A stretch of DNA of 64,000 bases from Candidatus Omnitrophota bacterium (GCA_026416665.1 JAOAET010000014.1:557-64556); one strand, 5' to 3'. Positions 5 to 38,573 are shown, counted from the first letter of the stretch. Notes: generated by a model from the letters alone, not told the origin. Numbers and translations are program-made.

Positions 5-1696
5 TTATCCTTCAACATCAAGAGTAACTCGCATTACCTCCTCTGGGGTTGTTAATCCCCCTAAAAGTTTCTGCAATGCTGCTTGCCGCAAGGTTATTAG
101 ACCATCTTTTATGGCCAACTCTCTAATTACATCTGCTGACTCTTTTTTTAAAACCGCCTCTTGAATAGTAGGAGTAACTTTTAATAATTCGTAGATACCT
201 GTTCTCCCCTTATACCCTGTTTGATTACAAACCTTGCAACCTCTTCCTTTCATAAAAGTAACAGGCTTATTAATATAACTATCAAGACCCAAGCTTTTTA
301 ATAATTCTGGTTTAGGCTCATAAGATTCTTTACATTTATCACATACCTTTCGTAATAATCGCTGAGCCAAAACGCCCAAAATTGAGGAAGAAATAAGGAA
401 TGGCTCTACTCCCATATTCATTAACCGTGTAAACGCAGACGGTGAATCATTGGTATGGAGTGTAGAAAAAACCATATGACCAGTCAAAGCTGCTTGTACA
501 GCAATCTCAGCTGTCTCTAAATCGCGTATTTCTCCTACCATAATAATATCCGGATCTTGTCGTAAAAACGACCTTAAAGCTGTAGCAAAAGTAAGCCCGG
601 CAACAGGATTTACTTGCACCTGACGCATTCCAGGGAATTGATATTCTACAGGGTCTTCAACAGTCATGATATTGACATCCTCTTTATTAAGTAACTGTAA
701 AGCAGAGTACAGTGTGGTGGTTTTTCCACTTCCAGTAGGACCAGTTACCAGAAGAATACCATAGGGTGAAGAAATTAATTCTTTAAAAGTAGCTAAAGTC
801 TGCGGAGGAAATCCTAGCGACTCCAGCCCCAGAACAAGTCCACTTTTATCTAGAATTCTTAAAACAATATTTTCTCCGTGCACAGTAGGACAGGTAGAGA
901 CACGAAAGTCTATATCTTTAGAACCAATCTTCATCATGATTCTTCCATCTTGTGGCAGACGTTTTTCCGCAATATCTAACCCCGCCATAATTTTAAAGCG
1001 TGAAGTTATGGCGCTAGCTAAATCTTTAGGAAGCGCGGGTTGTCTATGAAGCATTCCATCTATACGATAACGCACATTAAGGACATTTTCTTCAGGTTCA
1101 ATATGGATATCCGATGCCTTGTTTTGTACAGCTTGAATAATCAAATAATTTACAATTTTTATTATTGGCGCCTCTTCTCCTAATTTATCCGCCTCAACTA
1201 ACTTATTTTTATCAATAGAAGAAACTATCTCTTGTAAACTGCCTGTAGGGCCATAATACTGATCCTGCGCCTTGCGTATTTCAATCTCATCACAAGACAC
1301 CGGTTCAACATTCAGCTTTGTTAACCTTTGAATTTCGTCTATTACATAAACATTTGTAGGGTCAACCATAGCTACCGTAAGAGTGCTCTCTACTATAAAT
1401 ACAGGCATTATTTTATATTTGCGTGCAAAAAATTCGGGTATTAACCGGATTACTTCTGGTTCAATAATATAACTTGAGAGATTAAAAGCGGTAATACCCT
1501 TTTGCATATTAAGACATTTTTCGACAGCCTCTCGACTTGCCCAACCACGGCGCACAATAATCTCCCCAAGTTTTCCCCCTGACATCTTCTGTTCCATTAA
1601 GGCCTCATTAAGTTGTGAGGGGGTAATTAGACCTTTTTCAATAAGAAGCTCTCCTATCTTCTTTGGAATTTCTCCCATTTTTCCCTCATTTATCAA
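5..1696 (-). CDS. GspE/PilB/MshE-family type IV filament assembly ATPase (ATPase 1)
   Basis: Walker A GPTGSGKTT, Asp/His boxes and tetracysteine CDKC...CKVC. N-terminal T2SSE_N domain carries two 24-residue MshEN-like motifs (KIGELLIEKGLITPSQLNEALMEQ and KLGEIIVRRGWASREAVEKCLNMQ) separated by 5 residues. Confidence 0.9.
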   Translation of the reverse strand: MINEGKMGEIPKKIGELLIEKGLITPSQLNEALMEQKMSGGKLGEIIVRRGWASREAVEKCLNMQKGITAFNLSSYIIEPEVIRLIPEFFARKYKIMPVFIVESTLTVAMVDPTNVYVIDEIQRLTKLNVEPVSCDEIEIRKAQDQYYGPTGSLQEIVSSIDKNKLVEADKLGEEAPIIKIVNYLIIQAVQNKASDIHIEPEENVLNVRYRIDGMLHRQPALPKDLASAITSRFKIMAGLDIAEKRLPQDGRIMMKIGSKDIDFRVSTCPTVHGENIVLRILDKSGLVLGLESLGFPPQTLATFKELISSPYGILLVTGPTGSGKTTTLYSALQLLNKEDVNIMTVEDPVEYQFPGMRQVQVNPVAGLTFATALRSFLRQDPDIIMVGEIRDLETAEIAVQAALTGHMVFSTLHTNDSPSAFTRLMNMGVEPFLISSSILGVLAQRLLRKVCDKCKESYEPKPELLKSLGLDSYINKPVTFMKGRGCKVCNQTGYKGRTGIYELLKVTPTIQEAVLKKESADVIRELAIKDGLITLRQAALQKLLGGLTTPEEVMRVTLDVEG

Positions 1697-2839
1697 TTAC
1701 CACAAATTTTCTTTTAACCATTGATCTATCTTTTCCATTCTATCTAACCAAGAACTAACCTCTTCATTTTTTGAACGCCTTTGCCTAGAAGTTTGTATTT
1801 CATTACTGGCTGGTTTCTTTAGCGTTTTTTTATAAACAATTTCCTGTTGTAATTTTCTTTCACTCTTCTTTTGGACTGGTTGTATTATTTCCTTTTCCTG
1901 TTGTTTATTTAGCTTTTGACTTAGTTTATCTTCTTCTCTTTTTTCTTGACCGGTTTGTAGCAATTTAATATCTTTACTTTTTTGTTGTTGAGCAAGACGT
2001 TGTATTTCTTTCTCATATAACTGTTCACGCCTCTGACGAAATAATTCTTCTTCTCTAATCTGCTTTTGCCTTTGTTGCTCTTCTTTCTCCTTTTGTCGTC
2101 TTAATCGTTCTTCCTCTTGTAAACGTTTTTTTCTTTCTTGTTGTTGAATACGGAATTCTGCTTGGGAAGATGTATATTTGACTTTTTCTTCTTCAGGTTT
2201 ACTCACTAATTGTTCTTTTTTTTGCTGTTGAGGTATATTATTTTCAACTTCCTTTATCTTGACTTTTTCTTCTTGCTTATTCTTTGGTTCATATTCTTTT
2301 TTTTGTTCCGTCTTTGTAAGCTGCTTGTATCTCTCATCCTGCTCTAATTTCCTCTTTGCCAACATCTCTTGCCTTTGCGCCTGTCTTTGAGCTTTTAACT
2401 GCTCAATTCTGCCCTCTTTTTCCTGTCTTCTCATAACTAGCTGTTTAAGTTTTTCTTTACGCTGTTGCCTCTGTTGTGCCAATAACTGCTTGCGCCTATT
2501 ATTCTCTTCACGAACCTGCTGTTGCTTCTCTTGCTTTTTTTTATCCACTGCATCTTCTATCTTTAGTTTCTGTTTGGATTTTTCCTGTTTATTTAAAAGC
2601 GCATTCCTACTTTTTCTTTCCTCTATTTGAACTTGTAACTTTTTCCGTTGATTAACTAAATTTTTATAATATTGTTGTAAATCCGAAACCTCCCTTTCCT
2701 GTTGTTGTATTGTTTTTTCTAAGTTCCTGATACGTTCACTCAATTCGTCATATTTAGGTACCTCTGCCAGAGACAAGGAATCTATAAAAAAACAATTCAC
2801 TAGACTAAAAATTCCCATTACTAATAAACGCCTTTTCAT
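1697..2839 (-). CDS. secreted ER/K-rich coiled-coil / single-alpha-helix protein (380 aa)
   Basis: N-terminal signal peptide MKRRLLVMGIFSLVNCFFIDSLSLA. The remaining ~350 residues are almost exclusively K/E/R/Q/L with heptad character. Adjacent to the ATPase with no intergenic gap. Confidence 0.6.
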   Translation of the reverse strand: MKRRLLVMGIFSLVNCFFIDSLSLAEVPKYDELSERIRNLEKTIQQQEREVSDLQQYYKNLVNQRKKLQVQIEERKSRNALLNKQEKSKQKLKIEDAVDKKKQEKQQQVREENNRRKQLLAQQRQQRKEKLKQLVMRRQEKEGRIEQLKAQRQAQRQEMLAKRKLEQDERYKQLTKTEQKKEYEPKNKQEEKVKIKEVENNIPQQQKKEQLVSKPEEEKVKYTSSQAEFRIQQQERKKRLQEEERLRRQKEKEEQQRQKQIREEELFRQRREQLYEKEIQRLAQQQKSKDIKLLQTGQEKREEDKLSQKLNKQQEKEIIQPVQKKSERKLQQEIVYKKTLKKPASNEIQTSRQRRSKNEEVSSWLDRMEKIDQWLKENLW

Positions 2840-2857
2840 TCTTATTCCCTTCTTAAC

Positions 2858-4102
2858 TTAATAAGAAACTGTCCCTTGCAAAACACCTTGATGTTGTTGC
2901 CTTAAGGTTTTTAAAAAACTTTCTTCTGTCTCTAAATTCCTCTCTAAATCTTTCATCTGAATTGCCAGACTTTCTTGTTCTTTAAGTAAATTTTCTGTCT
3001 CGTTCAATATTTTCTCAAACCGTTTATCACACCTTTCTGTAAGCTCTATTTCCATTAGGCGATTACGTTTTTCATTCCAGTCTTTTAACCGCTTCTCTTC
3101 TTTGAGCTGGTTGTATTCTTGCTGTTTTTTTGGTTTTTCGGCCAATTCATATCTTTTTCGTACCTCTCGTATCTGTCTTATCCATGGGCGTTGTTTCAAT
3201 ATTTCTTCTCTTTTCCTCTGACGAATAATTTCCTTTAACTTCTGTTGATGTTCTCTTTTCTTGTAAGTAGTTTCTTCTCTTATTCTTTCAAATTTATTTT
3301 GTCCTTCTTCTTGTTTATTGGCTAACAACTCTTCTCTAAGTTTATCTTCCTCTGTTCTAGTTTGCTTTATTTCCTTGTTCTTACTTTTACTTAAAATATG
3401 TCTTAGCATCTGCCTTTCTCTAATTTTAAGCTTTTTATCAATACGTTTTAACTCTCTTTTTTTTCTTGCTTCTTGCTGCAGTTTATTTTTTCTTTCTTGA
3501 TGTTCCTTTGTCAACAGATTTTTAAGTTTATCTTTTTCTTGTTTTCTTTGGGCCTTCTTTTCCTCTTCAAGTTTTCTCTCAATTTCTCTAGTTATTAAAT
3601 TTTCTTGACGTTGAATTTCCCTTAGAGCTATCTTCTGTGCTTTTTTATCTTTTAACTCTTGGTTATGTTTTAATCTTTCTTCCTTACGTTCTATTGCCAT
3701 TATTTCTTTTCGTTTTCTGACCTCTTCCTTCTTAACACGCTCCTGTTTCCTTCTCTCCTCCTGCTGCTGCCTTAACCTCTCCCTCTCCTGCTTCTTCTTC
3801 TCTATCTCTTGCCTGTATTTGACCTTCTTTTTTTGAAGTTCTTTTTCTTCCTTATCTTTTTTTTCTAATTGCCGCTGCCTTATTTTATTTGTTATTTCCC
3901 TTTCTTTTTCCAGCTGTTCTTTCTTTATTTCTTTGTACCTTGTGCGTAGAAAATTTATTTTTTCTTCTTGTAGTTTTATCTGCTCTTCTAACTGTCTTAC
4001 TGACCTAAGCAATTCTTCTTCGGAATCTGCCCAAGAAGAAAATGAAAGGGTAAAAAAGCCAAGTATAGTGAATATAAATATTAACCATCCTCTATAATTC
4101 AT
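2858..4102 (-). CDS. secreted ER/K-rich coiled-coil / single-alpha-helix protein (414 aa)
   Basis: Signal peptide MNYRGWLIFIFTILGFFTLSFSSWA followed by ~390 residues of an ER/K (KEKE-type) charged helix. Paralogous in composition to the neighbouring genes. Confidence 0.6.
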   Translation of the reverse strand: MNYRGWLIFIFTILGFFTLSFSSWADSEEELLRSVRQLEEQIKLQEEKINFLRTRYKEIKKEQLEKEREITNKIRQRQLEKKDKEEKELQKKKVKYRQEIEKKKQERERLRQQQEERRKQERVKKEEVRKRKEIMAIERKEERLKHNQELKDKKAQKIALREIQRQENLITREIERKLEEEKKAQRKQEKDKLKNLLTKEHQERKNKLQQEARKKRELKRIDKKLKIRERQMLRHILSKSKNKEIKQTRTEEDKLREELLANKQEEGQNKFERIREETTYKKREHQQKLKEIIRQRKREEILKQRPWIRQIREVRKRYELAEKPKKQQEYNQLKEEKRLKDWNEKRNRLMEIELTERCDKRFEKILNETENLLKEQESLAIQMKDLERNLETEESFLKTLRQQHQGVLQGTVSY

Positions 4103-4116
4103 AGGATAATTATTAT

Positions 4117-4803
4117 TTAACCCTTCTTCTCTGTTTCTAATTTTTCCAATATATTATTTAGTTTCTTTATCTTCGCCTCTTCTTTGTTTAACAAGGTTTC
4201 TAGCAAACGTATTTTTCGTTCCAAAGATGTTTTCTTTCTGATAAGAAATTTTAAGGTCTTAGTAGGATTTTCAGTTTGTTCCGCTCTGTTACTAAACAAA
4301 GCCTCTTCGATTACTTTTTGACGAACCGCTACCAAATCTTCAGTTTTCTGGTGGGGTATTGTAGATGGTTTAGATTGTTTACTTCTAATAACTTTTTTTC
4401 TATTCTCTTCGTGTTTCTTCTTTAAAACTTTTGTTGACGTAGGTAGGAATAATTGTTCTTTTTTCACCTCTTTTTCTTTTGTAACTAATTGCTGTCTTGA
4501 TTTAGCAGAAATATCTTTTTCTTTACTGTACTTTTCTTTTTTCTTCTCTTGTTTTGTAAGACATTCGATCTCTTTCTTTTGCTGATTGATAGACAATTCA
4601 AGCTGCTTTCTTTGATAAACGAGATTTTCTAATTTTTTTTGCAGTTGGTTCACATATCTCTGCTGTTGAACAATCTCTTCGGTCAGTTGTTTAATCTTAA
4701 ACTTCAATATTCTGGGATTTTCAGAATTAAAAGCCATGCAATTTACCAAAGCAACCTCAAAAAATAAGCCTATAAATATCAAAATTGTAATATAATTTTT
4801 CAT
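4117..4803 (-). CDS. secreted ER/K-rich coiled-coil protein (228 aa)
   Basis: Signal peptide MKNYITILIFIGLFFEVALVNCMA, then a charged K/E/Q-rich helical sequence. Third member of the tandem triplet. Confidence 0.55.
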   Translation of the reverse strand: MKNYITILIFIGLFFEVALVNCMAFNSENPRILKFKIKQLTEEIVQQQRYVNQLQKKLENLVYQRKQLELSINQQKKEIECLTKQEKKKEKYSKEKDISAKSRQQLVTKEKEVKKEQLFLPTSTKVLKKKHEENRKKVIRSKQSKPSTIPHQKTEDLVAVRQKVIEEALFSNRAEQTENPTKTLKFLIRKKTSLERKIRLLETLLNKEEAKIKKLNNILEKLETEKKG

Positions 4804-4822: not shown

Positions 4823-6106
4823 TTAATTAAAACTCTTTTCACCCTTTAGAGTATTTTTCTCTTTTTCTAGCTGTTTGATACGTTCTTCTTCCATATTTAC
4901 AGCTTCTTGTAATTTTTTTGTCTGGTTAATTAATAATTCCTGTTTCTTTAATAGCTCGTTCCACTTAACAGCAAGTTTATTGGCTTTATCCATTTCCTTT
5001 TTCTCTCGTTCAAGTATCCTTATTTCTTCTTCTTCTCTCTCTCTCACAAAATTCCTGCTAATGCCATAGCGTTCTTGCCTAGCTATCTGAGCTATTTTCT
5101 CTTCATTTATAATAGAAGGCGAAACGAAAATAAGTAGTTCAGTTCTTTCTTTAGTATTTAGTTTTGCCTTAAATAAATTACCTAATAAAGGAATATCTCC
5201 CAAAAGAGGAATTTTGGTCTCTGACTTTACATTACGACTGCGCATCAACCCCCCAAGTATCACAGTCTGGTTACTTTTAAGAACCAACTTAGTAGAAGCC
5301 ATTCTTCGGTCAATAATGGGCACAGTATAAGGTATAGATACACCTCCACTGGCAACAGTTAAAGTGTAATCATCTATCTTTTCACTAATTTCAGGATTAA
5401 GCGTCATTAATATATCCCCATTTTCGCTGATAGTTGGCGTTACCTGCAGCATAATACCTACATCTTCAAAATGAATTGTCCAGGTAACTTGAACCGACCC
5501 AGATTCTGAAGTAGTCAGTGTAGGTTCAGCCCAAGGTAACTGCTGAACAATCCTAATTTGTGCTGGACGGTTATTTACTGTTGCTACACGAGGTGCAGAA
5601 AGTACCTCTGTATTATAACTATTGGCTAAAGCATTGATAACAACATTAATATTTTCATCAAAAATAGAAAAGGTAAAAGGTGTTTCCTCTAATGTCCCTC
5701 CTGGCTCGATAGTGTTCTTGTAAGGTATAAGCTGAGTAAGGGATTCAGGAGGAATACCCACTGTACCTGCAGTAGTGCTACCTACTTTAAAATTGCCCAC
5801 TTCTGCTCCCTCAGAATGAAACAACCGCCAATTTACTCCTAATGATTGCTGATCAGTTAACCGCACCTCTACTACCCTTGCCTCAATAAGAACCTGCGCT
5901 GGAGACACATCAATAGCTTCCAGGTACTCACTAATCCTTTTGATATTTTCAGGATAGTCCATTACCACGATAGAATTGGGTTCTTCGCCGTAAAAAACTT
6001 TTCCTTCACTAGAAAGTAAAGCGCGAATATTATTACTTACTTGTTGTGCATAGATATTCACTAATAAAATTGCTGTAATTATAACAATCAAGATGATTTT
6101 TTTCAT
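4823..6106 (-). CDS. short secretin (GspD/PilQ family): one Secretin_N domain plus secretin core, with C-terminal ER/K coiled-coil tail
   Basis: Own signal peptide. N1-like VLIEARVVEV. Secretin core VLSAPRVATVNNRPAQIRIV...IPLLGDIPLLGNLFKAKLNTKERTELLIFVSPSII. Last ~90 aa are an ER/K-rich helix (EREEEEIRILEREKKEMDKANK...). Confidence 0.85.
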   Translation of the reverse strand: MKKIILIVIITAILLVNIYAQQVSNNIRALLSSEGKVFYGEEPNSIVVMDYPENIKRISEYLEAIDVSPAQVLIEARVVEVRLTDQQSLGVNWRLFHSEGAEVGNFKVGSTTAGTVGIPPESLTQLIPYKNTIEPGGTLEETPFTFSIFDENINVVINALANSYNTEVLSAPRVATVNNRPAQIRIVQQLPWAEPTLTTSESGSVQVTWTIHFEDVGIMLQVTPTISENGDILMTLNPEISEKIDDYTLTVASGGVSIPYTVPIIDRRMASTKLVLKSNQTVILGGLMRSRNVKSETKIPLLGDIPLLGNLFKAKLNTKERTELLIFVSPSIINEEKIAQIARQERYGISRNFVREREEEEIRILEREKKEMDKANKLAVKWNELLKKQELLINQTKKLQEAVNMEEERIKQLEKEKNTLKGEKSFN

Positions 6107-6137: not shown

Positions 6138-6992
6138 CTATTTGCTTGAACCACTACTAGCTGTCCCAGTAGTTGTACTAGTAGTAGTCTGCACCTGTGT
6201 TCCCGTTGGAGTAATTACTTCTGTGGTTGTAGTTATCTTTTCGGTAGCGCCTACTACCTCATCCGCCTTAAGATATTTTAGTTTAAATACCCGTGTTTCC
6301 ATTTTATGATCTACTGTCTCTAAATATTGGGCAACGCGTTTTATATTTTCAGGATAATCAATTACCGTCAAAGCATTCTTCTGTGGTACTAACAAAATCT
6401 TTCCTTTTTTGGAGAGTAATGCAAATAAACCAGAAACCTGCTGATTATCTGATGAATCGCTACCTTCTCCTTTATTAGTAGCCGTAGTAGAGACCTCAAA
6501 AAGTTTCTTGGCTTCTATATGCTTTAACACAAAAGTTTGTGTTAATAGGTTTGGCCTTACTCTTAAAAGTGTTCCTTTTTTCTCAAGGATAAGATTACTA
6601 TGTTCGGCAATGGCCTCAAGTGCCTCTTCAAGCGAGATATCCGTAAAACTTGCCGTAATTTTTCCATCTACATCTTCATCTATAAGAATATTCAAATTAT
6701 AATCATGGGCAATAACACGAAACAAATCTCCTAAATTAACATTCCTTAATTCAATAGAATAGCGAGGTGCTTCTGCTTCTAACCGTTTTATTTCCAATAC
6801 CGGTGCATTAGTTAACTCTCTGTTAATCGGTTCTTGGACTTTTTGACCTTGTTGTTGGTTTGGTTGCTGTTGAGTAGGTTGAGATTTATCCTGACCAGCT
6901 GGCTCTTGTGCTTCTATATTTCCGTAATAAAACATACAAAACAAGCATAAAAGATAAATTTTTAATCCCTTATGTCTCTGAAAAACTAACAT
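6138..6992 (-). CDS. separately encoded secretin N0–N1 domain protein with Q-rich N-terminal and T/S-rich C-terminal low-complexity segments
   Basis: Signal peptide. STN/N0-like LGDLFRVIAHDYNLNILIDEDVDGKITASFTDISLEEALEAIAEH. N1-like ALTVIDYPENIKRVAQYLETVD, paralogous to VVMDYPENIKRISEYLEAID of the downstream secretin. Ends TTTTEVITPTGTQVQTTTSTTTGTASSGSSK. Confidence 0.6.
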   Translation of the reverse strand: MLVFQRHKGLKIYLLCLFCMFYYGNIEAQEPAGQDKSQPTQQQPNQQQGQKVQEPINRELTNAPVLEIKRLEAEAPRYSIELRNVNLGDLFRVIAHDYNLNILIDEDVDGKITASFTDISLEEALEAIAEHSNLILEKKGTLLRVRPNLLTQTFVLKHIEAKKLFEVSTTATNKGEGSDSSDNQQVSGLFALLSKKGKILLVPQKNALTVIDYPENIKRVAQYLETVDHKMETRVFKLKYLKADEVVGATEKITTTTEVITPTGTQVQTTTSTTTGTASSGSSK

Positions 6993-7004: not shown

Positions 7005-9017
7005 TTACCGCCGTGTAGATAAAAATACACGTATAACCTCATCAATTAGTCGGATATCCGCTATATCTTGTATCCCAAGAATATCTAGGCTATCATTTGT
7101 TATTTTTAGCGCATAACAACGTTTGTTTGGGAAGCTTAAAAAATCCGCTTGTTGTTTCTTCTCTTCTTTTAATGCCAAACCAAATTTTTGGGAAAGCATT
7201 TTCTTAAATGCCTCAGCATAAGAAACAGCATCGTTGAGTGTTTTCCATTTAATCTGTAACAGAAATAAGCGATTACCGTTATTATGTCTGTATATTGAAA
7301 TTTTATCGTTTTGCCAAGCACCACAGATTTCTTCTGCTTCCTCTTTGGGCAGAATCTGGCGTAAAGTCATTAAAAGGTAAAACTCACCTATACTATCTTC
7401 ATATTCTTTATGCCAGCCTTCCGGAAAAGTTAATACGTTGACCTCTTCCTTCTGTTGGGCAGATTTATCTGCTAAAGACTGTTCAGTAACCGAGCGATAT
7501 GGATGTAACAGTTGCTGTGTGGTAGAAGGCGGTTTGGCAAACAATTTATCCAAATCATTCCATTGTTTATCACTAAGGTAATATTGAATATAATTAGCAC
7601 CATATCCATATAAACTGTATTGCAACTTATCTATTGTCTCTTTATTGTCTTTTAATATCTTATTCTCGATTAAATCAAAGATATCCCCCAAAGATTTGAA
7701 ACTCTTTCCATCCTTACTTAATATATACTCTAGTTGAATAGCTTTTGCCTCGCCTTCTAAAAGCATATTTAAGGCAGTGATATTATCTTGCGAAAGCTTA
7801 TCTTTATTTATTCCAAGTATCTCTGGTGAATAGTAAGTATGTTGATAAGCATGTACGAGTTCATGAACTAAAACCGTTTCTGCTAACTCAGGACTAAGCC
7901 ACTGCCCTAAGAAAATCTTTTTCCTCTGTTTACTATACAAACCAGCAACAGAAGCTATTAAAGAATCAACCAACATCTCACGGTAATTTATTGCCTGCGG
8001 AACTAATCCCAACCATTTCAGAATCTCTTCTTGAATAGCAAAATATTCTGTATTATATTCTTTTTCAAGGTCCTCTAAAACATAAGAACGTAAACTTACT
8101 CTATCTATAAATTCAATCCCAAAATCCTCAAATGGCTTCCATCCACGTAACTGAGTAATCCATTGAATTAAGGTAGGAATCTTCTGTTTTATTTTTTCTC
8201 TCTCACCTAATACCTCTTGTTGAATATCTGAAGGCACATCAAATTTCTCTGTTGGATTTTGTTTCTGATAATGATTAAGTTGTAAAAAATACATCCCATT
8301 GATTTTTCCTTCAATTCGCGCCAAAACTGTAAAAAAATCTGTAGTATCTATCCAGATAGTCTTAGTAAGTTGTCCGCTTATACCTTTTTCTTCTAAGATC
8401 TTTGGGTTAATTGTGTAACGTAAAACATAACACTTCTTTCCAAAACGTTCTTCTATTGCCAGTATTTCTTTAGTAACAGGTTCTGCCTCTTCTTGTTGGA
8501 CATAAAAAAGAGATTGTAAAAACTGATACGTCAATATTTCATTTTTATCTTTATCAGATATTTGCAGCTTTTCTCTTTGCCATTTTCTTTTTTGCGCATC
8601 CCAAACAAAAGAAAGACCGTCGTAATCATACCCTTGCGCCCAGTCAGCAGTAGAGATGCCATAAGGCACAGTTAAAGAAACACTGATTTTGGTATCTGTT
8701 TTTATATTTTCGAGTCTATCTATCAGATCCTTACTATTTACTCTTATATGAAACAACTCATGTCCCAACCAAACATCAGAAATAACTATAAACTTAGGAG
8801 TTTGCAAAAACGCACTGGCTGTTTTATATAAAAGATAGTCTGAATCTATTTGGGTATTTAATGGTAACCATGAAGTATTTTTACCTCTCTGCTGTTGTTG
8901 GGCTATCTCACTTAAATATTGTCTCAGTTGCACCGCCTCCCACCCTAACAAAAAAGGTAAGCATAAGAGTAAGTAGAATTTTCTTTTAATTTTTTCTTTT
9001 ATGGGCTTAACCATCAA
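7005..9017 (-). CDS. secreted HExxH zinc-metallopeptidase-like protein (MA-clan, gluzincin-like), 670 aa
   Basis: N-terminal hydrophobic signal or anchor (FYLLLCLPFLLGW). HELVHAYQH motif followed ~30 aa later by LLEGEAKAI, a candidate third Glu ligand. No recognisable named peptidase family. Confidence 0.45.
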   Translation of the reverse strand: MMVKPIKEKIKRKFYLLLCLPFLLGWEAVQLRQYLSEIAQQQQRGKNTSWLPLNTQIDSDYLLYKTASAFLQTPKFIVISDVWLGHELFHIRVNSKDLIDRLENIKTDTKISVSLTVPYGISTADWAQGYDYDGLSFVWDAQKRKWQREKLQISDKDKNEILTYQFLQSLFYVQQEEAEPVTKEILAIEERFGKKCYVLRYTINPKILEEKGISGQLTKTIWIDTTDFFTVLARIEGKINGMYFLQLNHYQKQNPTEKFDVPSDIQQEVLGEREKIKQKIPTLIQWITQLRGWKPFEDFGIEFIDRVSLRSYVLEDLEKEYNTEYFAIQEEILKWLGLVPQAINYREMLVDSLIASVAGLYSKQRKKIFLGQWLSPELAETVLVHELVHAYQHTYYSPEILGINKDKLSQDNITALNMLLEGEAKAIQLEYILSKDGKSFKSLGDIFDLIENKILKDNKETIDKLQYSLYGYGANYIQYYLSDKQWNDLDKLFAKPPSTTQQLLHPYRSVTEQSLADKSAQQKEEVNVLTFPEGWHKEYEDSIGEFYLLMTLRQILPKEEAEEICGAWQNDKISIYRHNNGNRLFLLQIKWKTLNDAVSYAEAFKKMLSQKFGLALKEEKKQQADFLSFPNKRCYALKITNDSLDILGIQDIADIRLIDEVIRVFLSTRR

Positions 9018-9436
9018 TTCTTATTATTTTCCTCTTGTGACTGAGACTTCAAAATACTGCTTACTTTTATAACGTATTCTCCAACACTATCTTTTAACCT
9101 AATTTCTTCTGGTTTGATATTGGTAATCTCTTTATTATCTACATAATCGCCTATTTTCAATATCCTCCCATTGACAATAACACAGCTTTTTCCAGCATCA
9201 GGCGCATATATAATGGCAGTAATATTAAATCCATCTAAAGGAATAGCCGTTCCTTGTTCCTGAAATAATTTTTCTTCGTCACTGGTAAGAAAAGGATTCT
9301 CTTTACCTTTTAAGATAATAGGCCCTTTCTCCACAGTAACCTCAGTTTGAGTAAAAGAAAAAACCATAAGTAAATTAGAAAAAGTTAAAGTTGTGGTTAC
9401 ACCGATAATCTTTATAAGAAGACTTAATCTAGCCAA
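9014..9436 (-). CDS. PilP/GspC-like small periplasmic protein
   Basis: N-terminal membrane anchor. C-terminal beta-rich segment with VIVNGRILKIGDYV, resembling PilP/GspC secretin-interacting domains. 4-nt overlap with the downstream gene. Confidence 0.35.
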   Translation of the reverse strand: MARLSLLIKIIGVTTTLTFSNLLMVFSFTQTEVTVEKGPIILKGKENPFLTSDEEKLFQEQGTAIPLDGFNITAIIYAPDAGKSCVIVNGRILKIGDYVDNKEITNIKPEEIRLKDSVGEYVIKVSSILKSQSQEENNKN

Positions 9437-9721: not shown

Positions 9722-9747
9722 AATACTTGATAGTATTTGATAGTATT
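9722..9747. repeat. operator-like repeat: inverted repeat AATACT-tgat-AGTATT followed by a tandem direct repeat of TGATAGTATT (x2)
   Basis: Read directly from the sequence in the 185-nt intergenic region upstream of the HTH gene. Confidence 0.5.
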
Positions 9748-9805
9748 GTAAACTACCAGATATAAATTGTCAAGATTTAATTTTTTATAATCCCTTTATT
9801 TTTAT

Positions 9806-10639
9806 TTAGTTAGAAAAAAGACGCACTAATAATTTTCTATCCTCTGCCGTCAGATTATTAATTCGAATCCCTAGCAAATAATTTTTATAGTTTACCATCG
9901 TGCTGCGCAGGATTTCTCCTTTTGCCTCTATTACACAAGTTTCAAACCCACATTTTTCGAACCCATAGAGTGTAAAGGAAACATATATATGAGGTGGTAA
10001 AAATAAAGGCATCTCTGCTCCTAAAGCAGAACAATCCGCCGAAACATTTAAAACTTTTCCTTCAATAACTCTGGGAGCAAACAATTTAACTTCTTCATCA
10101 ACAAGAGTAAGCTGTATTTTACCAGAAACAGGTAATCTATCTGCCTCTCGCCATTGACTAACCCCACTTAAAGGATTATGCTTAATAAGATATCTAGTGA
10201 TTTCAAAATTCTGTTCATCAAGTTTGTAATAGAGATCTATAGCAGCTAAAATTTCGTGAGTAGTAGCAACCACCGGCTCAATCGTTAATCCTGTAATTTT
10301 GGAAACATCGTCAATAAGAGCTGCGTTTAAAGGATTAGCACATGCTAAAAACAAAGTATTGCCTACCTTATATAAGGGAAAAACCTTATTTTGTAAACAA
10401 TAATTTTCTTCTAAAAGATGAAGCACATGTGGCGAAATTGCATAATCAGAAATACGTACAAATGCAAAACCACCCATTTGTGCAAAGAAACAAGCCAGCT
10501 GTTCTTCTGATAAAAACCCTAATTTTACCAGACATATCCAAATAGATTTTTTACTGGTGGTGGCTTCAAGGCGAGCAACATCAAGCTGCCATTGTTCAAT
10601 CCATTTGTTCTCTAATAACTCTTTTTCGAGATCTAACAT
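9806..10639 (-). CDS. T2SSE_N (GspE N-terminal-like) domain fused to a PilZ c-di-GMP-binding domain
   Basis: N-terminal region is T2SSE_N-like (LVKLGFLSEEQLACFFAQ...VFPLYKVGNTLFLACANPLN). C-terminal region has canonical PilZ motifs RxxxR (READR, residues 164–168) and DxSxxG (DCSALG, 202–207). Confidence 0.6.
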   Translation of the reverse strand: MLDLEKELLENKWIEQWQLDVARLEATTSKKSIWICLVKLGFLSEEQLACFFAQMGGFAFVRISDYAISPHVLHLLEENYCLQNKVFPLYKVGNTLFLACANPLNAALIDDVSKITGLTIEPVVATTHEILAAIDLYYKLDEQNFEITRYLIKHNPLSGVSQWREADRLPVSGKIQLTLVDEEVKLFAPRVIEGKVLNVSADCSALGAEMPLFLPPHIYVSFTLYGFEKCGFETCVIEAKGEILRSTMVNYKNYLLGIRINNLTAEDRKLLVRLFSN

Positions 10640-14360: not shown

Positions 14361-15473
14361 CTATCTCTTCTTTTTAGAATCAGGAATTAGCTCTACTTCT
14401 ACCTTAGGTTCACCTTTTTTTGTAGGTAAATGGCCTTGTTGATTTAGCTGGTTATCAGGTGTCTGCAGAACCTCACCAATACGCCCTAAAAGCGTAAGGT
14501 ATTTATCTTGCAAATCTAACATTTGTTGATTTATCTTGTCCAAAGCCATCTGTATGTTGTTTTTTTCTAATTCTACTGCTATATATTTTTCACGTAAGAT
14601 AGCAATTTGTCGGTCTTTGTCCTTGGATTCAGAACGCGCATCAAAAAGTTCGTTTTCCAAGTGCATAATCTTTTCTTGTAAAGAAAATATCTTCTTTGAG
14701 CGGTCTTCCAACTCCTCTCTACTGTTGGCCAATGCCTCCTTGGCTTCTTCATATTGTTTAGCCAATAGTTGTCTTTGGTTTTCTGATTGTTGCAGTTCAT
14801 CTTCCAGTTTCCTAATTTTCTCTTCCAAAGGTTTTGGGTCAAAACGCTTTGTCTGCTCAACTGTGACTTCCTGCAAACTCGCTACAGAAAGAGGGGTATT
14901 CTCTAAAATCTGCAAAAGATAGTTATTAACCGAGGAAAGCTCTTTAGAGACTGTCTCAAGTTGCAGACGTAGTAATTCTTCCTTACCCCTAGAAATTTGC
15001 AGACTTTCTAAAGCTGTTTCCACATGAGCAAGTTTATCTTTAATTGGCTCTATTAAGAGAAACTTCTCTTTTAGTTGAACTATCTGCTTTCTAAGAAATC
15101 TGTTATGTTTTACAAGCACAAGTAACTGCTTCCTAAGGACAGAAAACTGAATTATCTGTTGTTGTAGCTTTTGAAGCTGTAGGGTCAAAAGATGGTTCTG
15201 CCTGAGGGCATCAGTAAGCGTCTGATTAGTTGTTGTAGAGCTACGTTCTACTTCTTCTAACTGTTTTTTTATCTCCTGCTCCTTTTTAACAAACTTATCA
15301 CTTAATTCTTTATAATAGTTGAGCTCTCCTTGTAACTTATCAAGTATTAACTGTTGCTGTTTGTTTTGCATAATACTTTGAGTAAACTCTTTCTGAAGCC
15401 CAGTATAGTAAAACAAAAGCGCACAACTACAACTTATTACAATAACCACAAAAAATGTCCTTTCAGCGAACAT
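14361..15473 (-). CDS. membrane-anchored long coiled-coil protein
   Basis: N-terminal TM helix followed by ~340 aa of heptad-rich Q/E/K/L sequence. Sits between the TPR gene and the secretin. Confidence 0.45.
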   Translation of the reverse strand: MFAERTFFVVIVISCSCALLFYYTGLQKEFTQSIMQNKQQQLILDKLQGELNYYKELSDKFVKKEQEIKKQLEEVERSSTTTNQTLTDALRQNHLLTLQLQKLQQQIIQFSVLRKQLLVLVKHNRFLRKQIVQLKEKFLLIEPIKDKLAHVETALESLQISRGKEELLRLQLETVSKELSSVNNYLLQILENTPLSVASLQEVTVEQTKRFDPKPLEEKIRKLEDELQQSENQRQLLAKQYEEAKEALANSREELEDRSKKIFSLQEKIMHLENELFDARSESKDKDRQIAILREKYIAVELEKNNIQMALDKINQQMLDLQDKYLTLLGRIGEVLQTPDNQLNQQGHLPTKKGEPKVEVELIPDSKKKR

Positions 15474-16907: not shown

Positions 16908-17366
16908 CTATTGTTCTGGAAAAGTTAAATAAAAACTCTGACTGCCTTTGCGCAAAAGCACTTTATCAGGTAATATCTCAACAACCTCATAACCACTAAT
17001 TATATCACCCACCTTAACAATCTCGTTACTAACAAAAGCAAATCCTACTTTATCTTTCCGCATTGAAATACCCTGAAGACGTAAGGCGGAAGCTTGTCCT
17101 GCCTTGTATGGGTCAGCAGAAAAAGGGTCCCTTCCCCAAGGTTTTTGGGCATTTTTTCTTTGCTCCTCAAGAACTGCTGCTTCCACCTCTTCAACTTTAT
17201 TATTTGCTTGAAAAAAACTATTTCCTGAAGAAGCTTCTTGCAACTGCGAAACCGTAGCCTGAGTTTTCCTCTTCTTATTTTTAAAAGAAAGGTTATGCCA
17301 AAACAAAAAAAACATCAACGGAATTCCTAAGATAATAATTATTATTTGAATCTTCTGTTTATCCAT
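16908..17366 (-). CDS. PilP/GspC-like protein
   Basis: N-terminal TM. RDPF motif. C-terminal GFAFVSNEIVKVGDIISGYEVVEI beta domain. Confidence 0.6.
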   Translation of the reverse strand: MDKQKIQIIIIILGIPLMFFLFWHNLSFKNKKRKTQATVSQLQEASSGNSFFQANNKVEEVEAAVLEEQRKNAQKPWGRDPFSADPYKAGQASALRLQGISMRKDKVGFAFVSNEIVKVGDIISGYEVVEILPDKVLLRKGSQSFYLTFPEQ

Positions 17367-22892: not shown

Positions 22893-24035
22893 TTGTTATA
22901 CTTTTTAATAAAAGAGGGTATTTTTATGGCTTCAAAATTAAGAAATATAATTGAGGATATTGCAAGAGACTATTTAAATAGTGCCCTTACTTTACGCTAT
23001 GACATCTGCACCTGTCCTGCCTGCAAAAACGATATGTTGGCATATATACTTTCTCGTGTCCCTGCTAAATATGTAACTACTGAAGAAGGAGCTTTACATA
23101 CAGTTATTCAACAAAGTCGTGTTGAGCATCAGGCAGTAATTGGACGGGTAATCATTGAGGCAATTGAGGTCATTAGTAAGAACCCACGCCATAAACTCAA
23201 GGAAGACAAAAATAAAGTTTTTTCGTTACTACTTGAAACTATTAAAGAAAACAGAGGCTTAGACTTTACACATTATCACCAGGAGCTTCTAAAACGCCGT
23301 ATTGCTATTAGGCTACGTGCAAATAGGATGGAAACCTATTCTGAATATCTAAGATATTTAATAAACAATCCTGAAGAATATGACAAACTCTTTGCCACAC
23401 TTTGTATTAATGTCTCAGAGTTTTTCCGTGACCCTGAAGTGTGGAAGAAAATAAGACAGATTTTAAAAAATATAGTGGAAGATAAAATAAAAAGTAGCAA
23501 TCCTTACATTTGCATCTGGTCAGCAGGCTGTGCTGATGGTGAAGAACCGTATTCCATTGCTATTCTACTTAAAGAAATTTTAAAAGACAAAACTTATAAC
23601 CTTCATATAGATATCTCTGGAACAGATGTAGATAAAAAAAGTTTAGCTTTTGCCCAAGAGGCAATCTACGAAAAAAACCTGATAAAAAATGTAGATAAAG
23701 AACTATTAGATAAATATTTTGAGCCACAAGATAACTGTTGGAGAGTAAAAAAAGAAATACGTTCAATGGTTAATTTCTATTATCTTGACTTAACTGGCCA
23801 AGAATATAAAAAAAATGTAGATGTTATATTTTGCAGAAATGTTTTTATCTATTTTGACCGTGGATTACAAGAACAAATTCTGATGAAATTTTATAATGCC
23901 CTTAGAAATGATGGATATTTAGTAATGGGTAAGTCTGAAACCCTTATCTCTGAAGCAAAACATATTTTTAGTGAGGTAGATTTAGATTGTCGAATATTTC
24001 GTAAAAAAGAAGTAAATTCAATTACTTCTCCTTAA
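22893..24035 (+). CDS. ComFB-like domain fused to CheR-type MCP methyltransferase (CheR_N + SAM-MTase)
   Basis: N-terminus RYDICTCPACKNDMLAYILSRVPAKY matches the ComFB Cys motif. CheR_N: LDFTHYHQELLKRRIAIRL...INVSEFFRD. MTase: ICIWSAGCADGEEPYSIAILL. Confidence 0.7.
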   Translation: MLYFLIKEGIFMASKLRNIIEDIARDYLNSALTLRYDICTCPACKNDMLAYILSRVPAKYVTTEEGALHTVIQQSRVEHQAVIGRVIIEAIEVISKNPRHKLKEDKNKVFSLLLETIKENRGLDFTHYHQELLKRRIAIRLRANRMETYSEYLRYLINNPEEYDKLFATLCINVSEFFRDPEVWKKIRQILKNIVEDKIKSSNPYICIWSAGCADGEEPYSIAILLKEILKDKTYNLHIDISGTDVDKKSLAFAQEAIYEKNLIKNVDKELLDKYFEPQDNCWRVKKEIRSMVNFYYLDLTGQEYKKNVDVIFCRNVFIYFDRGLQEQILMKFYNALRNDGYLVMGKSETLISEAKHIFSEVDLDCRIFRKKEVNSITSP

Positions 24036-24049
24036 GCAACAAACAAGAA

Positions 24050-25126
24050 ATGGACAACCAAAGTTTGCTATTAGTAAAAGAAGTAGCAAAAGAAGCCCTC
24101 AACCAATCCTTACAGACGCGTTTCGACATCTGCAGATGTGCTCTCTGTAAAGAAGCAATGCTTAAGCGTATAATGGAAGATTTAGCAAACTTAGCTTATC
24201 CTCTTTCTGAAAAAACAATTCAAGAAGTGCGAAAACTTTATATGGGCGATATTAACCGCGCTATTGTTCACGCTATTGGACAAGTAAGCTTTAAACCTCC
24301 GCATTCCGTTACAGAGAATCTACATCTTTCTTTTAAAAAACTTTTAGAGAAAATTCGCCAAGACCGCGGACTTGACCTACGCCACTATCATGCAGAGTTA
24401 CTAAAACGTAGGATTGCACTTAGACTCCATAAGAATAATCTGTCTTCTTACAAGGAATATATCAAGCTACTTGATAGAAAACCAGAAGAATATAATAAAT
24501 TATTTGAAACCCTCTGCATTAATGTTTCGGAATTTTTTCGCGACCCACCTGTCTGGGTCACCATCCAGTATCTATTTGAAAACCTTCTAAGACTAAAACA
24601 AAATAGTAAGGATAAGAATCTAAAAATATGGTCTTGTGGTTGTGCTTGTGGTGAAGAACCTTACTCATTAGCTATTGTCCTTAAAGAAGCTTTACGTAGT
24701 TATCCGACTAATATTAAAGGACACATTTTAGCTACTGATATAGATAAAGCTTGTTTAGAATGCGCACAAAAAGCTGCTTATCCTAAGGAACAACTCAAAA
24801 ATGTTGAAAATAAAATACTTGCACGATACTTTGAACCAAAAGGAAATCAATACGTTGTAAAAGAAGATACCCGACAGTTGGTAGAATTCCAATATCTAGA
24901 CCTAACTTGTCAGAGTTATCCTGAGCAAATAGATGTAATTGTATGCCGTAATGTATTTATTTACTTTGACCGTGTTCTACAAAATGAAATAATTAATAAG
25001 TTCTATAACTCTGTTAAAACAGGGGGTTATCTTATCTTAGGTAAAACAGAATTCCCTGAGATGAATAAAAGATTTGAAATAGTTGACCCCAATGCGCGGA
25101 TTTTTAGAAAGGTTAATCTTTCTTGA
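24050..25126 (+). CDS. second ComFB-like–CheR methyltransferase paralog
   Basis: RFDICRCALCKEAMLKRIM; LDLRHYHAELLKRRIALRL...INVSEFFRD; KIWSCGCACGEEPYSLAIVL. 14 nt downstream of the first copy. Confidence 0.7.
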   Translation: MDNQSLLLVKEVAKEALNQSLQTRFDICRCALCKEAMLKRIMEDLANLAYPLSEKTIQEVRKLYMGDINRAIVHAIGQVSFKPPHSVTENLHLSFKKLLEKIRQDRGLDLRHYHAELLKRRIALRLHKNNLSSYKEYIKLLDRKPEEYNKLFETLCINVSEFFRDPPVWVTIQYLFENLLRLKQNSKDKNLKIWSCGCACGEEPYSLAIVLKEALRSYPTNIKGHILATDIDKACLECAQKAAYPKEQLKNVENKILARYFEPKGNQYVVKEDTRQLVEFQYLDLTCQSYPEQIDVIVCRNVFIYFDRVLQNEIINKFYNSVKTGGYLILGKTEFPEMNKRFEIVDPNARIFRKVNLS

Positions 25127-27921: not shown

Positions 27922-27925
27922 ATTT

Positions 27926-29668
27926 TTATTTTCGAGCTATTGCCTTGAATTTACAAACCTCAAAACACCGTCCACATTTAATACAAGTATCAACATTAAT
28001 AGAAAAACCTGTCTCTCTACTACCTGCTATAGCTTTGACTGGACACTGATTTACACAGACTGTACACCGTTTACATTTCTCTTGGATAATCGTATAATTT
28101 AAAAGCTCTACACATTTTGCTGCGCGACAGTATCTTTCATCAATATGTTCTTTATATTCGTTTTCAAAATAACGCAGGGTAGAAAGAACGGGATTTGCTG
28201 CTGTTTGTCCTAGTCCACAAAGAGAAGCCTTTTGCATAGCAAAGGCTATACGTTTTAATAGCGATATATCAGCAGATTTACCTTTACCACTAGCAATACG
28301 CTCTAATACTTTAAGCATCTGAAAACCACCGATACGACACGGTGCACATTTACCACAAGATTCATCAACACAAAATCCAAGATAGAACCTAGCAATATCT
28401 ACCATACAGTCATCTTCGTCCATTACAATCATTCCACCTGAACCCATAATAGAACCTAGCTTCTGTAAATTTTCATAGTCAACTGGAGTATCTAAATATT
28501 CTTCAGGAACCACACCTCCAGACGGCCCACCTGTTTGAACAGCCTTTATAGGTTTTCCTGAGATAGTTCCACCCCCAATATCATAGACAATTTCGCGTAG
28601 AGTAATTCCCATCGGAACCTCTACCAACCCAGAATTTTTTACCTTTCCAGTCAAAGCAAAAACTTTTGTTCCTTTAGAAGTAGCTGTTCCAATCTTTGCG
28701 AAATTATCTGCTCCCTCTAAAATAATATAGGGCACATTAGCAAGGGTCTCTACATTATTTATTGCTGTAGGTTTGTCCCAAAGCCCTTTTACTGAAGGAT
28801 AAGGTGGTCTTGGTCGGGGTGTACCTCGTTTACCTTCTATAGAAGCAATAAGCGCTGTTTCTTCTCCACAAACAAAAGCACCAGCTCCCAGACGAATTTC
28901 TATATCAAAATCAAAATCCGTCCCTAAAATACTTTTCCCTAGTAACCCATATTCATATGCCTGACTAATAGCTAAACGAATACGTTCCACCGCTAAAGGA
29001 TATTCCGCCCGAATATAAAAATACCCACGAGAAGCACCTATGGTATAGGCAGCAATTATTAAGCCTTCTACTACTGAATGTGGATCACCTTCTAACACTG
29101 ACCTATCCATATACGCACCAGGGTCTCCTTCATCTGCATTACAGATAACATATTTTTGTTCTGCGGTGACCTGGCGTGTAAATTTCCATTTTAACCAAGT
29201 AGGGTATCCGGCACCACCTCTTCCGCGCAGTCCAGATTTTTTCATCTCCTCAATTACTGCGTCTGGTGTCATCTCCAACAGAACCTTTTTCAAAGCAAGA
29301 TATCCACCTTTAGCAATATAATCCTCTATTGACTCGGGATTTATCCTACCACAATTACGTAAGACAATGCGTAGCTGTTTAGAAGGTTTCTTATAAAGTA
29401 AGTCTTCTATAACTTTTGATTCTTTTATCGTGGTATCAATAATACGTGAAAAATCTTCTTCTTTTACATTGGCATAAAGGACATTGTCAGGAAGGATTTC
29501 TATTACAATACCCTGGTTATAAATGCCGATATCCGCAACACGAACTACCTGCACTTGGTCTTGAAGATTGTGATTACGTATTAGGTCAATAAAAACACTA
29601 TAAACTTGACGAGTTCTTTCTTCAGTGTCGGCACCTGTATCTTTTAAAAAAACTGTTTTGGTGTACAT
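27926..29668 (-). CDS. hydB: NuoF-like NAD(P)H-binding flavoprotein subunit of hydrogenase (HydB/HndC)
   Basis: [16 protein letters not shown]; [10 protein letters not shown]; C-terminal 2x[4Fe-4S] [12 protein letters not shown] / [11 protein letters not shown]. Confidence 0.85.
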
Positions 29669-38564: not shown

Positions 38565-38573
38565 AACTGAAAC

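Follow-up and report, generated by a model that had tools for sequence, protein, structure and literature searches.

Type II and type III secretion, type IV pili and filamentous phage all use secretins as outer-membrane gates, and the way in which secretins are anchored, stabilised and coupled to the envelope differs by lineage and is only partly understood. Omnitrophota are abundant, uncultured and ultra-small, and type IV pili are thought to underlie their host-attached or predatory lifestyle. Among the described partners of secretins, the pilotins (PulS/OutS, AspS/GspSβ) bind the S-domain of GspD, one per subunit, and form a belt under the outer membrane (PMC6532946), the secretin belt GspP of D. 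radiodurans is an Ig-like lipoprotein (PMC10828601), and GspB/OutB, which is bitopic in the inner membrane, touches the N0 domain of the secretin (PMC9239104). Here we analysed a stretch of DNA of 64,000 nucleotides (nt) from Candidatus Omnitrophota bacterium (GCA_026416665.1 JAOAET010000014.1:557-64556, "the window" below), in which three consecutive genes, coding for KE proteins A, B and C, lie between the second of two secretins (secretin 2) and the second of two ATPases (ATPase 2). The coordinates, gene count and product lengths given for the three genes in an earlier note, which a model had made from the sequence, agreed exactly with the open reading frames (ORFs) listed in Table 1. The three proteins are built of modules, one of which is homologous to the coiled-coil tail of secretin 2; in related loci the genes are strictly syntenic, they co-occur with the tail, and the modules follow a count rule. 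Papers on Omnitrophota, which describe type-4a pilus clusters and type II secretion system (T2SS)-like loci near giant genes, make no mention of these proteins or of the secretin tail (PMC10066038; bioRxiv 10.1101/2023.11.21.568195). We suggest, with a probability of roughly 0.45, that A, B and C are exported to the periplasm and serve there as accessory subunits of secretin 2, which would belong to a type IV pilus/T2SS-like machine, and that they dock on its tail and chain head-to-tail.

Alignment of the family revealed one shared plan: a signal peptide, an N-module, a variable charged spacer and a C1 or C2 end. The N-module of about 47 residues (consensus ELExxIxxLxxxIxxQExxVxxLRKKYExILKRKKxLQxxIxxEK) has an unbroken 4-3 pattern that runs through six heptads, and polar Q and K are conserved within its core; in 28 aligned members the core reads L-I-L-I-(Q)-V-L-Y-I-(K)-L-I over ~41 residues. 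The C1 consensus is Y..xL..LI.KQ..L......LE.....EE..L..L.E, and that of C2 is ...MDKIEK.D.W.K.NLW, with [LIVF]W as the C-terminus. By hidden Markov models (HMMs), A is an N+C1 protein (N-module at amino acids (aa) 32-77, 42.6 bits with the N2 HMM; C1 at aa 180-227, 40.4 bits), and B is another (N-module at aa 28-74, N2 32.7 bits; C1 at aa 363-405, 52.9 bits). C is an N+C2 protein (N-module at aa 30-76, N2 48.5 bits; C2 at aa 356-380, 43.9 bits) that ends in DQWLKENLW-COOH and has five prolines in its charged spacer. The best decoys for the N, C1 and C2 HMMs scored 9.0, 14.6 and 7.3 bits. Having a signal peptide plus N-module, a C1 or C2 end and a place in the slot between secretin and ATPase, all three belong to the N-module family as defined here. 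The spacer ranges in relatives from almost nothing (in proteins of 100-110 aa) to > 1000 residues. The three largest single-gene versions (1065-1221 aa) have one N-module and one C2 around expanded EEKRLAAEKQ-type repeats, and an 878-aa protein from locus L019 has one N-module and a C1-like end. We rejected the idea that these giant versions (878-1221 aa) are fusions of several N-C1 units, as each has a single N-module.

The C1 module and the C-terminal coiled-coil tail of the secretin itself are homologous. This tail consists of 85-103 residues directly after the LLIFVSP motif that closes the secretin domain, and it is kept in 31 homologues. One HMM was built from the 31 secretin tails only and another from the C1 modules of the slot proteins only. 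The tail HMM matches the C-termini of slot proteins at 16-45 bits (16 bits for B), while its best reversed decoy reached 8.5 bits; in the other direction, the C1 HMM matches secretin tails at 17-27 bits, with best decoys at 15.2 and then 7.8 bits. The charge of the N-module is acidic and then strongly basic (LRKKYExILKRKK), and that of the tail and C1 is basic and then acidic (KKQ...LExxIxxEExxLxxLE). These charges fit a parallel in-register pairing of the N-module with the tail or C1, in which they would be complementary, and they would be unfavourable for an N:N homodimer.

Next, related loci were collected by scanning one genome per GTDB species, which gave 48 loci. The slot, from the C-terminal part of the secretin to the ATPase, was complete in 35 loci. 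Three homologue contexts have the order MerR, (small protein), DUF8575, secretin N, secretin C, 2-4 genes, ATPase and pilins; their slot genes have no Pfam match, and the proteins resemble A, B and C. The slot holds 0-4 genes, and 20 of the 35 loci have 1-4 genes with a signal peptide and an N-module, which follows directly after the signal peptide in every N-bearing slot protein. All slot proteins except the last carry C1, and the last carries C2, or nothing more in minimal forms of 100-176 aa; L019 is the exception. The N+C1 proteins always lie 5' of a single N+C2 protein, and C2 is confined to the last gene 5' of the ATPase. When the tail is included, 34 of the 35 loci have as many N-modules as C1-like modules (3 and 3 in the window); the exception is again L019, which has a divergent tail.

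The co-occurrence of tail and slot genes is strict. All 19 secretins with a full tail (HMM score of at least 30 bits) have a slot gene, and so does only one of the 16 with a short (48-70 aa), divergent or tetratricopeptide repeat (TPR)-type tail, namely L019. In L033 (8285-10576), L038 (8361-10385) and L045 (54-1574), the coiled-coil tail is replaced by a TPR extension of 320-430 aa on the secretin, and no KE gene lies before the ATPase. Five minimal systems (L009, L015, L025, L034 and L040) consist of the tail and one protein of 100-176 aa, barely a signal peptide and an N-module, which points to a direct relationship between tail and N-module. The N, C1 and C2 HMMs gave 40, 27 and 15 matches in ~0.8 Mb of loci, all in the slot or the secretin tail, and no match elsewhere in these loci or in the 64-kb window. 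The earlier note had suggested a structural role with the secretin machine from the position of the three genes; the linkage to a secretin was borne out, with all module hits directly 3' of a secretin, C1 homologous to its tail and slot genes present only with tail-bearing secretins, L019 with its divergent tail apart.

A metagenome search that started from the N-module side, with a closer alignment subset, found a tail-bearing secretin directly upstream in 3 of 3 loci. One of them (L056), with proteins of 288 aa (N+C1), 180 aa (N+C1) and 666 aa (N+C2), follows the same grammar. An exhaustive HMMER search of 1.84 billion representatives with a profile of five sequences (the three N-termini from the window plus P0121 and P0122) returned 32 hits. 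About 20 of these were family members by eye, all with an N-terminal module and with C1 or C2 at the other end; the remaining hits were generic coiled coils (tape-measure and S/T-repeat proteins). The small number of hits indicates that the family is small or too divergent for a five-sequence profile. A word-indexed homologue search with B gave 8000 low-complexity candidates, none at E ≤ 1e-3, and the same type of search with a 28-sequence N-terminal profile retrieved only two proteins. Since orthologues with conserved end modules fill the same slot in many Omnitrophota genomes, the A, B and C genes are real.

These data also bear on a reading of A, B and C as fibrous cargo (secreted, as the earlier note had considered, or displayed on the surface) or adhesins. 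They would be exported by the Sec pathway, pass through the secretin as T2SS-type substrates or be displayed, and bind host or prey surfaces through their basic, repetitive helices, the bacteria being presumed epibionts. The signal peptides described below, net charges of +9 to +41, variable copy number and length with repeat expansions up to 1221 aa, and the proposed attachment of Omnitrophota to hosts by type IVa pili (PMC10066038) would all agree with such a role. So would the fast evolution of the proteins: compared with the closest relative (L007), A, B and C show 22-39 % identity, mainly at the ends, versus 60 % for the secretin and 84 % for the ATPase. Cargo or adhesin is nonetheless improbable, because the proteins have a module in common with the periplasmic secretin tail and depend strictly on that tail. 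Furthermore, the variable part is the spacer and the end modules are kept, adhesin and enzyme domains are absent, and the minimal members have only ~75 mature residues.

In the accessory-subunit model, we infer a periplasmic location, pairing of N-modules with C1-like modules and a structural role. The secretin tail would emerge under the outer membrane, where GspD-type secretins have the S-domain, and would form a parallel heteromeric coiled coil together with the N-module of A; C1 of A would then pair with the N-module of B, and C1 of B with that of C, which would close the chain by C2, a short amphipathic cap. Each of the 12-15 secretin subunits would thus bear a charged flexible helical tether, and the tethers could form a skirt, cage or spokes that stabilise or anchor the secretin or link it to other envelope parts. 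Pairing between a C1-like module and the N-module of the next protein is indicated by the minimal systems, which consist of the tail and an N-only protein, and by the count rule. A structural role is supported by the TPR array that replaces tail and genes in sister lineages and by the existence of lineage-specific secretin belts (PMC10828601, PMC9239104). The parts of this model differ in strength. Physical attachment of A, B and C to the secretin tail is probable. A specific head-to-tail chain is tentative and rather doubtful, and a self-limiting polymer of the form tail·N(A)–C1(A)·N(B)–C1(B)·N(C)–C2 cap, in which gene order sets assembly order, is slightly more doubtful still.

An alternative use of the same modules is that C1 joins the secretin tails in a collar and the N-modules bundle together, so that the proteins act as a pilotin- or stabiliser-like assembly factor with no chain. 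C1 and tail are homologous, and homologous coiled coils often co-oligomerise; the TPR-extended sister secretins without a slot gene suggest interchangeable accessory solutions, and pilotins and belts are precedents (PMC6532946, PMC10828601). Against this, the tail is required even in the one-gene minimal systems, which have an N-module and lack C1, parallel N:N homodimers are disfavoured by the strongly basic half of the N-module, and the absence of a lipobox speaks against a Lol-dependent pilotin. We regard this homotypic arrangement as unlikely. No rival accounts for the grammar and the N-only minimal systems as well as the head-to-tail chain does.

Several observations weigh against the chain, however. 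The count rule follows equally from the statement that every slot protein has an N-module and all except the last have C1, and other architectures, such as homotypic bundles, also fit it. The HMMs were trained partly on the same loci, and a rough neighbour-joining tree of the secretin core suggests that only ~2-4 independent gain/loss transitions underlie the co-occurrence. L020 has a weak tail of 98 aa and no slot gene, and L019 has a slot protein behind a divergent tail. The N and C1 modules might pair within one chain, since the non-significant best structural matches of A are antiparallel hairpins (predicted template-modelling score (pTM) of the A model, 0.55). A fully extended chain would be ~100 nm long, far beyond the width of the periplasm. 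Finally, cleavage of the signal peptides is predicted from a rule of thumb only.

By that rule-of-thumb check, the N-termini of A, B and C have the features of Sec signal peptides cleaved by signal peptidase I: 1-3 K/R, an uncharged hydrophobic run of 13-21 residues and a (-3,-1) site with small residues. A begins with MK followed by ITILIFIGLFF and ends its signal-peptide-like segment (aa 1-~25) at ...CMA/F, a site assigned by eye (the slash marks the predicted cut). In B, MNYR is followed by GWLIFIFTILGFFTL...SWA/D (aa 1-25), and in C, MKRR by LLVMGIFSLVNCFFI...SLA/E (aa 1-~26, site again by eye). With the same rule-based approach, the pattern of n- and h-region was found in 30 of 30 relatives and the (-3,-1) site in 27 of 30, in line with the signal peptides proposed in the earlier note, and we infer that those of A, B and C are cleaved. 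For A, the upstream ATG has a poor Shine-Dalgarno sequence; it is still the better start, because the orthologues all have a signal peptide. In the public record, where the three genes are currently unannotated, A is mis-started: the entry (P0124, 206 aa) begins at Met23 and omits the signal peptide (4738-4803, -). We also looked for a lipobox ([LVI][ASTVI][GAS]C). A and C carry ...LVNC..., with N at position -1, B has no Cys in its signal peptide, and neither have most orthologues. A lipoprotein reading of the recurrent LVNC was rejected, because N at -1 does not fit a lipobox and LVNC is not a conserved motif. Without a lipobox, A, B and C are not pilotin-type lipoproteins.

If the signal sequences were instead uncleaved anchors, A, B and C would be bitopic inner-membrane tethers of the TolA/PilN/GspL kind, with the charged helix crossing the periplasm and the C-terminus engaging the tail. 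Such connectors are as improbable as cargo. Their TolA-like layout, the average length of the uncharged N-terminal runs (19.7 residues), the lack of PilM/N/O genes of its own in the second secretin set and the periplasm-scale length (~31 nm) of the helix predicted at aa 27-236 of B are in their favour, but 27 of 30 members have an n-h-c layout with (-3,-1) sites (SWA/D, VFA/E, ALA/E, xYA/Q), no similarity to TolA, PilN/O or GspL/M was found, and a spacer of ~0 to > 1000 residues is incompatible with a fixed span. The variable spacer length, together with the missing gene in some lineages, likewise makes a fixed-length periplasmic ruler unlikely, which disfavours the periplasm-spanning spacer of the earlier note in that sense.

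A, B and C are not uniform ER/K rods. K+E+R+Q make up 0.44, 0.57 and 0.58 of A, B and C, respectively, versus 0.245 ± 0.041 (maximum 0.378) in the other 48 long ORFs of the window, so that the three proteins lie 4.7 to 8 standard deviations above the mean. This outlier composition agrees with the earlier note; its description of the proteins as almost entirely K/E/R/Q went too far, since 30-residue windows range from 0.38 to 0.87 and A has a P/S/T-rich linker. The heptad and ER/K character that it ascribed to the full length is likewise limited to parts of the proteins. A strong heptad signal was limited to the two ends of the mature proteins, ~45 residues each, where the end modules qualify as canonical heptad coiled coils (at least 4 heptads); the hydrophobic excess at a/d versus other positions is 0.5-0.9 in N and C1 and 0.05-0.35 in the spacer. 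In the middle an ER/K-like i/i+4 pattern is patchy, and prolines break up the charged middle. A charged fraction of at least 0.67 with a positive i/i+4 score was found only at B 99-140 and C 239-266; elsewhere in the spacers the charged fraction is 0.4-0.6, with Q and prolines.

AlphaFold2 (AF2) was run on the single sequences of A and B, and the models agree with the note in being strongly helical. In A, helices were predicted at aa 30-116, 154-176 and 180-227 (pTM 0.55), with a low-confidence P/S/T/K-rich linker at aa ~117-153. In B, helices at aa 27-236 and 249-412 flank a hinge at aa 237-248 (pTM 0.25). The N-module and C1 of both proteins have per-residue confidence (pLDDT) values of ~85-98. 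The longest unbroken predicted helix, in B, spans ~210 residues (~31 nm), well short of the single helix of ~390 residues and 55 nm envisaged before. The earlier interpretation was thus partly right. DNA-level tandem repeats were absent within the A, B and C genes, unlike in some orthologues, and Rfam, tRNA and tandem-repeat scans of the region gave nothing relevant.

The strong positive charge of the proteins (net +24, +37 and +33 for A, B and C) raises one more reading, that of a ComEA-like periplasmic polycation whose basic helices capture DNA or other anionic polymers from a competence-type pilus secretin. The secretin does score on models of the DNA-uptake porin HofQ, the ATPase is PilB/ComGA-like and a ComFB-domain protein is encoded nearby. 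However, the HofQ scores are far under the cut-off (121 versus 554), orthologues range down to a net charge of 0 to +5, the proteins have no HhH, OB or other DNA-binding domain, and the N/C1/C2 grammar would be left unexplained. We consider this reading very improbable.

Comparison with known families supported the view of the earlier note that the three proteins are not a standard component of a T2SS or type IV pilus. Pfam and NCBIfam have no family for B and C, and A gave only a spurious sub-threshold hit (19 bits versus 293). At E ≤ 10, Pfam matches for A, B and C were absent, including those to TolA, Skp/OmpH (PF03938) and pilotins, and thus the homology to TolA domain II or Skp that the note had named as contrary evidence was not found. 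In Pfam and NCBIfam the core periplasmic profiles of T2SS and type IV pili (GspC/L/M, PilN/O/P, TsaP, FimV) did not match A, B or C. With B and C as queries, phmmer against all PDB chains had no match at E ≤ 1. A Foldseek comparison of the A model with PDB yielded only non-significant matches (E ≥ 0.09, TM-score ≤ 0.34), the top ones being antiparallel hairpins of EnvC, SMC and p85-iSH2. The core parts of T2SS and type IV pili, TolA, Skp/OmpH and pilotins were all rejected as identities. For TolA, there is no profile match, and the neighbours are a secretin and a PilB-type ATPase with no tolQR-pal context. For Skp/OmpH, lengths of 228-414 aa and the modular anatomy differ from the ~160-aa trimeric "jellyfish", and no match was obtained at E ≤ 10. 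For pilotin and TPR families (PulS, AspS, PilF/PilW/Tgl), there is no lipobox and no match at E ≤ 0.01.

Table 1. Genes and other features of the second secretin set in the window
Feature	Coordinates	Strand	Remarks
ATPase 2, PilB/GspE/MshE-type, directly 3' of KE protein C	5..1696	-	with N-terminal MshEN motif
KE protein C	1697..2839	-	ORF, 380 aa
KE protein B	2858..4102	-	ORF, 414 aa
KE protein A	4117..4803	-	ORF, 228 aa
Secretin 2, C-terminal part	4823..6106	-	own signal peptide, N3-like domain, Secretin domain, tail
Secretin 2, coiled-coil tail	4826..5116	-	aa 331-427 of 427-aa protein; C1-like module
Secretin 2, N-terminal part, separate gene	6138..6992	-	own signal peptide, N0/STN + Secretin_N
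Promoter-like site 5' of MerR gene	9745..9773	-	TTGACA-17-TACAAT, 11/12, consensus match only

The genes on both sides of A, B and C were identified by profile matches, in agreement with the placement between a secretin and a GspE-family ATPase in the earlier note. The C-terminal part of secretin 2 matches PF00263 (151 bits, E 2.5e-44) and scores 222, 195 and 186 bits with GspD, PilQ and MshL, all under the curated cut-offs; it is identical (100 %) to NCBI N2606_00855 from a Candidatus Omnitrophica metagenome-assembled genome. The N-terminal part matches PF03958 (E 4.3e-10), with weaker STN and N0 matches. Homologues of secretin 2 number in the thousands, nearly all labelled Omnitrophica/Omnitrophota. 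Most are ~425-435 aa long, which indicates that the split is conserved, and a few are fused (~670-700 aa). ATPase 2 matches PF00437 (473 bits, E 4.8e-142) and PF05157 (67 bits), and scores 657 bits with PilB (TIGR02538, cut-off 676), 619 with GspE (cut-off 630) and 65 with the MshE-type c-di-GMP-binding motif NF053729 (cut-off 38).

All genes in the first 23 kb of the window lie on the minus strand and form two sets. Set one codes for pseudopilins, a PilM-type protein (597 aa), PilO, a small T2SSB-like protein, secretin 1, a transmembrane (TM) plus coiled-coil protein, a TPR protein, ATPase 1, PilC/GspF and an MshEN-PilZ protein. A 185-bp gap, which holds the near-consensus promoter-like site, parts it from set two. 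Set two starts with a MerR regulator, a second small T2SSB/CdsD_C-like protein (P140) and a 670-aa DUF8575/Hvo_1808-like protein and ends with the split secretin (two genes), A, B, C and ATPase 2. The gaps between secretin and A, A and B, B and C, and C and ATPase are 19, 14, 18 and 0 nt, and no terminator-like site was found on the minus strand of the A-B-C region. It is probable that an operon of MerR, P140, DUF8575, secretin N, secretin C, A, B, C and ATPase begins at the promoter-like site; its gene order recurs in L001-L005. In L005 (1-7758), a giant gene (> 4100 aa, with DUF2341/Laminin_G_3 repeats) lies directly 5' of the MerR-secretin set, which matches the reports of T2SS-like loci beside Omnitrophota giant genes.

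Some further genes are of interest. Secretin 1, the tail of which has only 38 aa and is non-coiled, is followed by a 370-aa coiled-coil protein (14361-15473, -) that has an N-terminal TM helix and lacks N, C1 and C2 modules; it is kept in L003/L004 as a 373-aa gene. The DUF8575/Hvo_1808-like protein (7005-9017, -) has an HELVH (HExxH) motif and weak matches to metallopeptidase families, and its gene lies directly 5' of the split secretin in L001 and L003/L004 and is absent from L005. Two small paralogues, one per secretin set (9014-9436, - and 16908-17366, -), have a weak T2SSB/CdsD_C-like C-terminal domain and may be GspB/PilP-like partners of the secretin N-domains. A stand-alone MshEN-PilZ protein is encoded after PilC (9806-10639, -), which together with the c-di-GMP-binding motif on ATPase 2 suggests c-di-GMP control of the machine. 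Divergent from the pilin genes are two CheR genes, one coding for a fusion of CheR with ComFB, a c-di-NMP receptor domain (22893-24035, +), and one for a second CheR methyltransferase (24050-25126, +). The regions 36456-40529 (-) and 26170-29668 (-) hold heptosyltransferase and lipid A acyltransferase genes and an [FeFe]-hydrogenase with a NuoF-like subunit; the heptosyltransferase and acyltransferase genes are consistent with a lipopolysaccharide outer membrane. Two antisense S/L/F-rich ORFs opposite gene B (3318-3500, +) and the secretin tail (4875-5069, +) were rejected as genes, being mirror-image low-complexity artefacts.

We have thus defined an unannotated protein family, a conserved coiled-coil secretin tail and a simple module-count rule. 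If true, the chain model would be a natural example of programmable coiled-coil concatenation, and the polymer would represent a new way in which a superstructure is erected on a secretin in the periplasm, with charged spokes or a cage of up to ~100 nm on the 12-15 secretin subunits. Its reach would then be tuned in evolution through gain or loss of N–C1 units or growth of the charged spacer. In these ultra-small cells, the superstructure could serve to place the pilus machine or to connect it with the envelope or the second secretin. If the chain model is wrong, the strict co-occurrence of tail and genes still marks A, B and C as secretin partners.

How does this family compare with known systems? 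As with the pilotins of T2SS and type III secretion, a helical accessory is encoded with the machine, and the secretin extension starts directly after the secretin domain. Pilotins, however, are globular helical lipoproteins that travel by the Lol pathway and bind a short S-domain helix, whereas A, B and C have no lipobox or sequence match to them; here the extension is a coiled coil of 85-103 residues, and its partners are long, modular, multi-copy and share the tail module. PilF/PilW/Tgl TPR pilotins are also accessory interaction modules on or acting on PilQ-type secretins, and the TPR-tailed secretins (L033, L038, L045) have such an array at the position of the tail; from this positional replacement, TPR array and coiled-coil tail may be functionally equivalent. 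PilF/PilW/Tgl are TPR-fold lipoproteins, while the family described here is coiled coil and charged helix. TolA domain II offers a similar layout, with an N-terminal hydrophobic segment, a long charged helix and a small C-terminal module, and some orthologues have AAEKKA-type repeats; unlike in TolA, the N-terminus of A, B and C looks cleavable and their C-terminal modules show no relationship with domain III of TolA.

ER/K single alpha-helix (SAH) domains are found, for example, in myosin VI/X and caldesmon. Like these, B (~99-140) and C (~239-266) have E/K/R-rich i/i+4 patches and low hydrophobicity, and AF2 predicts long isolated helices; unlike SAH domains, the proteins end in canonical heptad coiled coils, are rich in Q and have prolines and hinges that interrupt the helix. 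EnvC shares the signal peptide, the long coiled-coil helices and the periplasmic location, which is predicted for A, B and C, but these lack LytM or any other globular domain. GspP and GspB/OutB are lineage-specific subunits that surround or anchor secretins, as A, B and C would be, and the operon of the window has its own T2SSB/CdsD_C-like protein (9014-9436); GspP and GspB are not coiled-coil chains and have no sequence in common with A, B and C. Taken together, A, B and C constitute an undescribed, Omnitrophota-lineage-specific family of probable secretin accessory proteins, a variation on the theme of the S-domain partners in which the secretin extension and its partners would be built from the same coiled-coil module.

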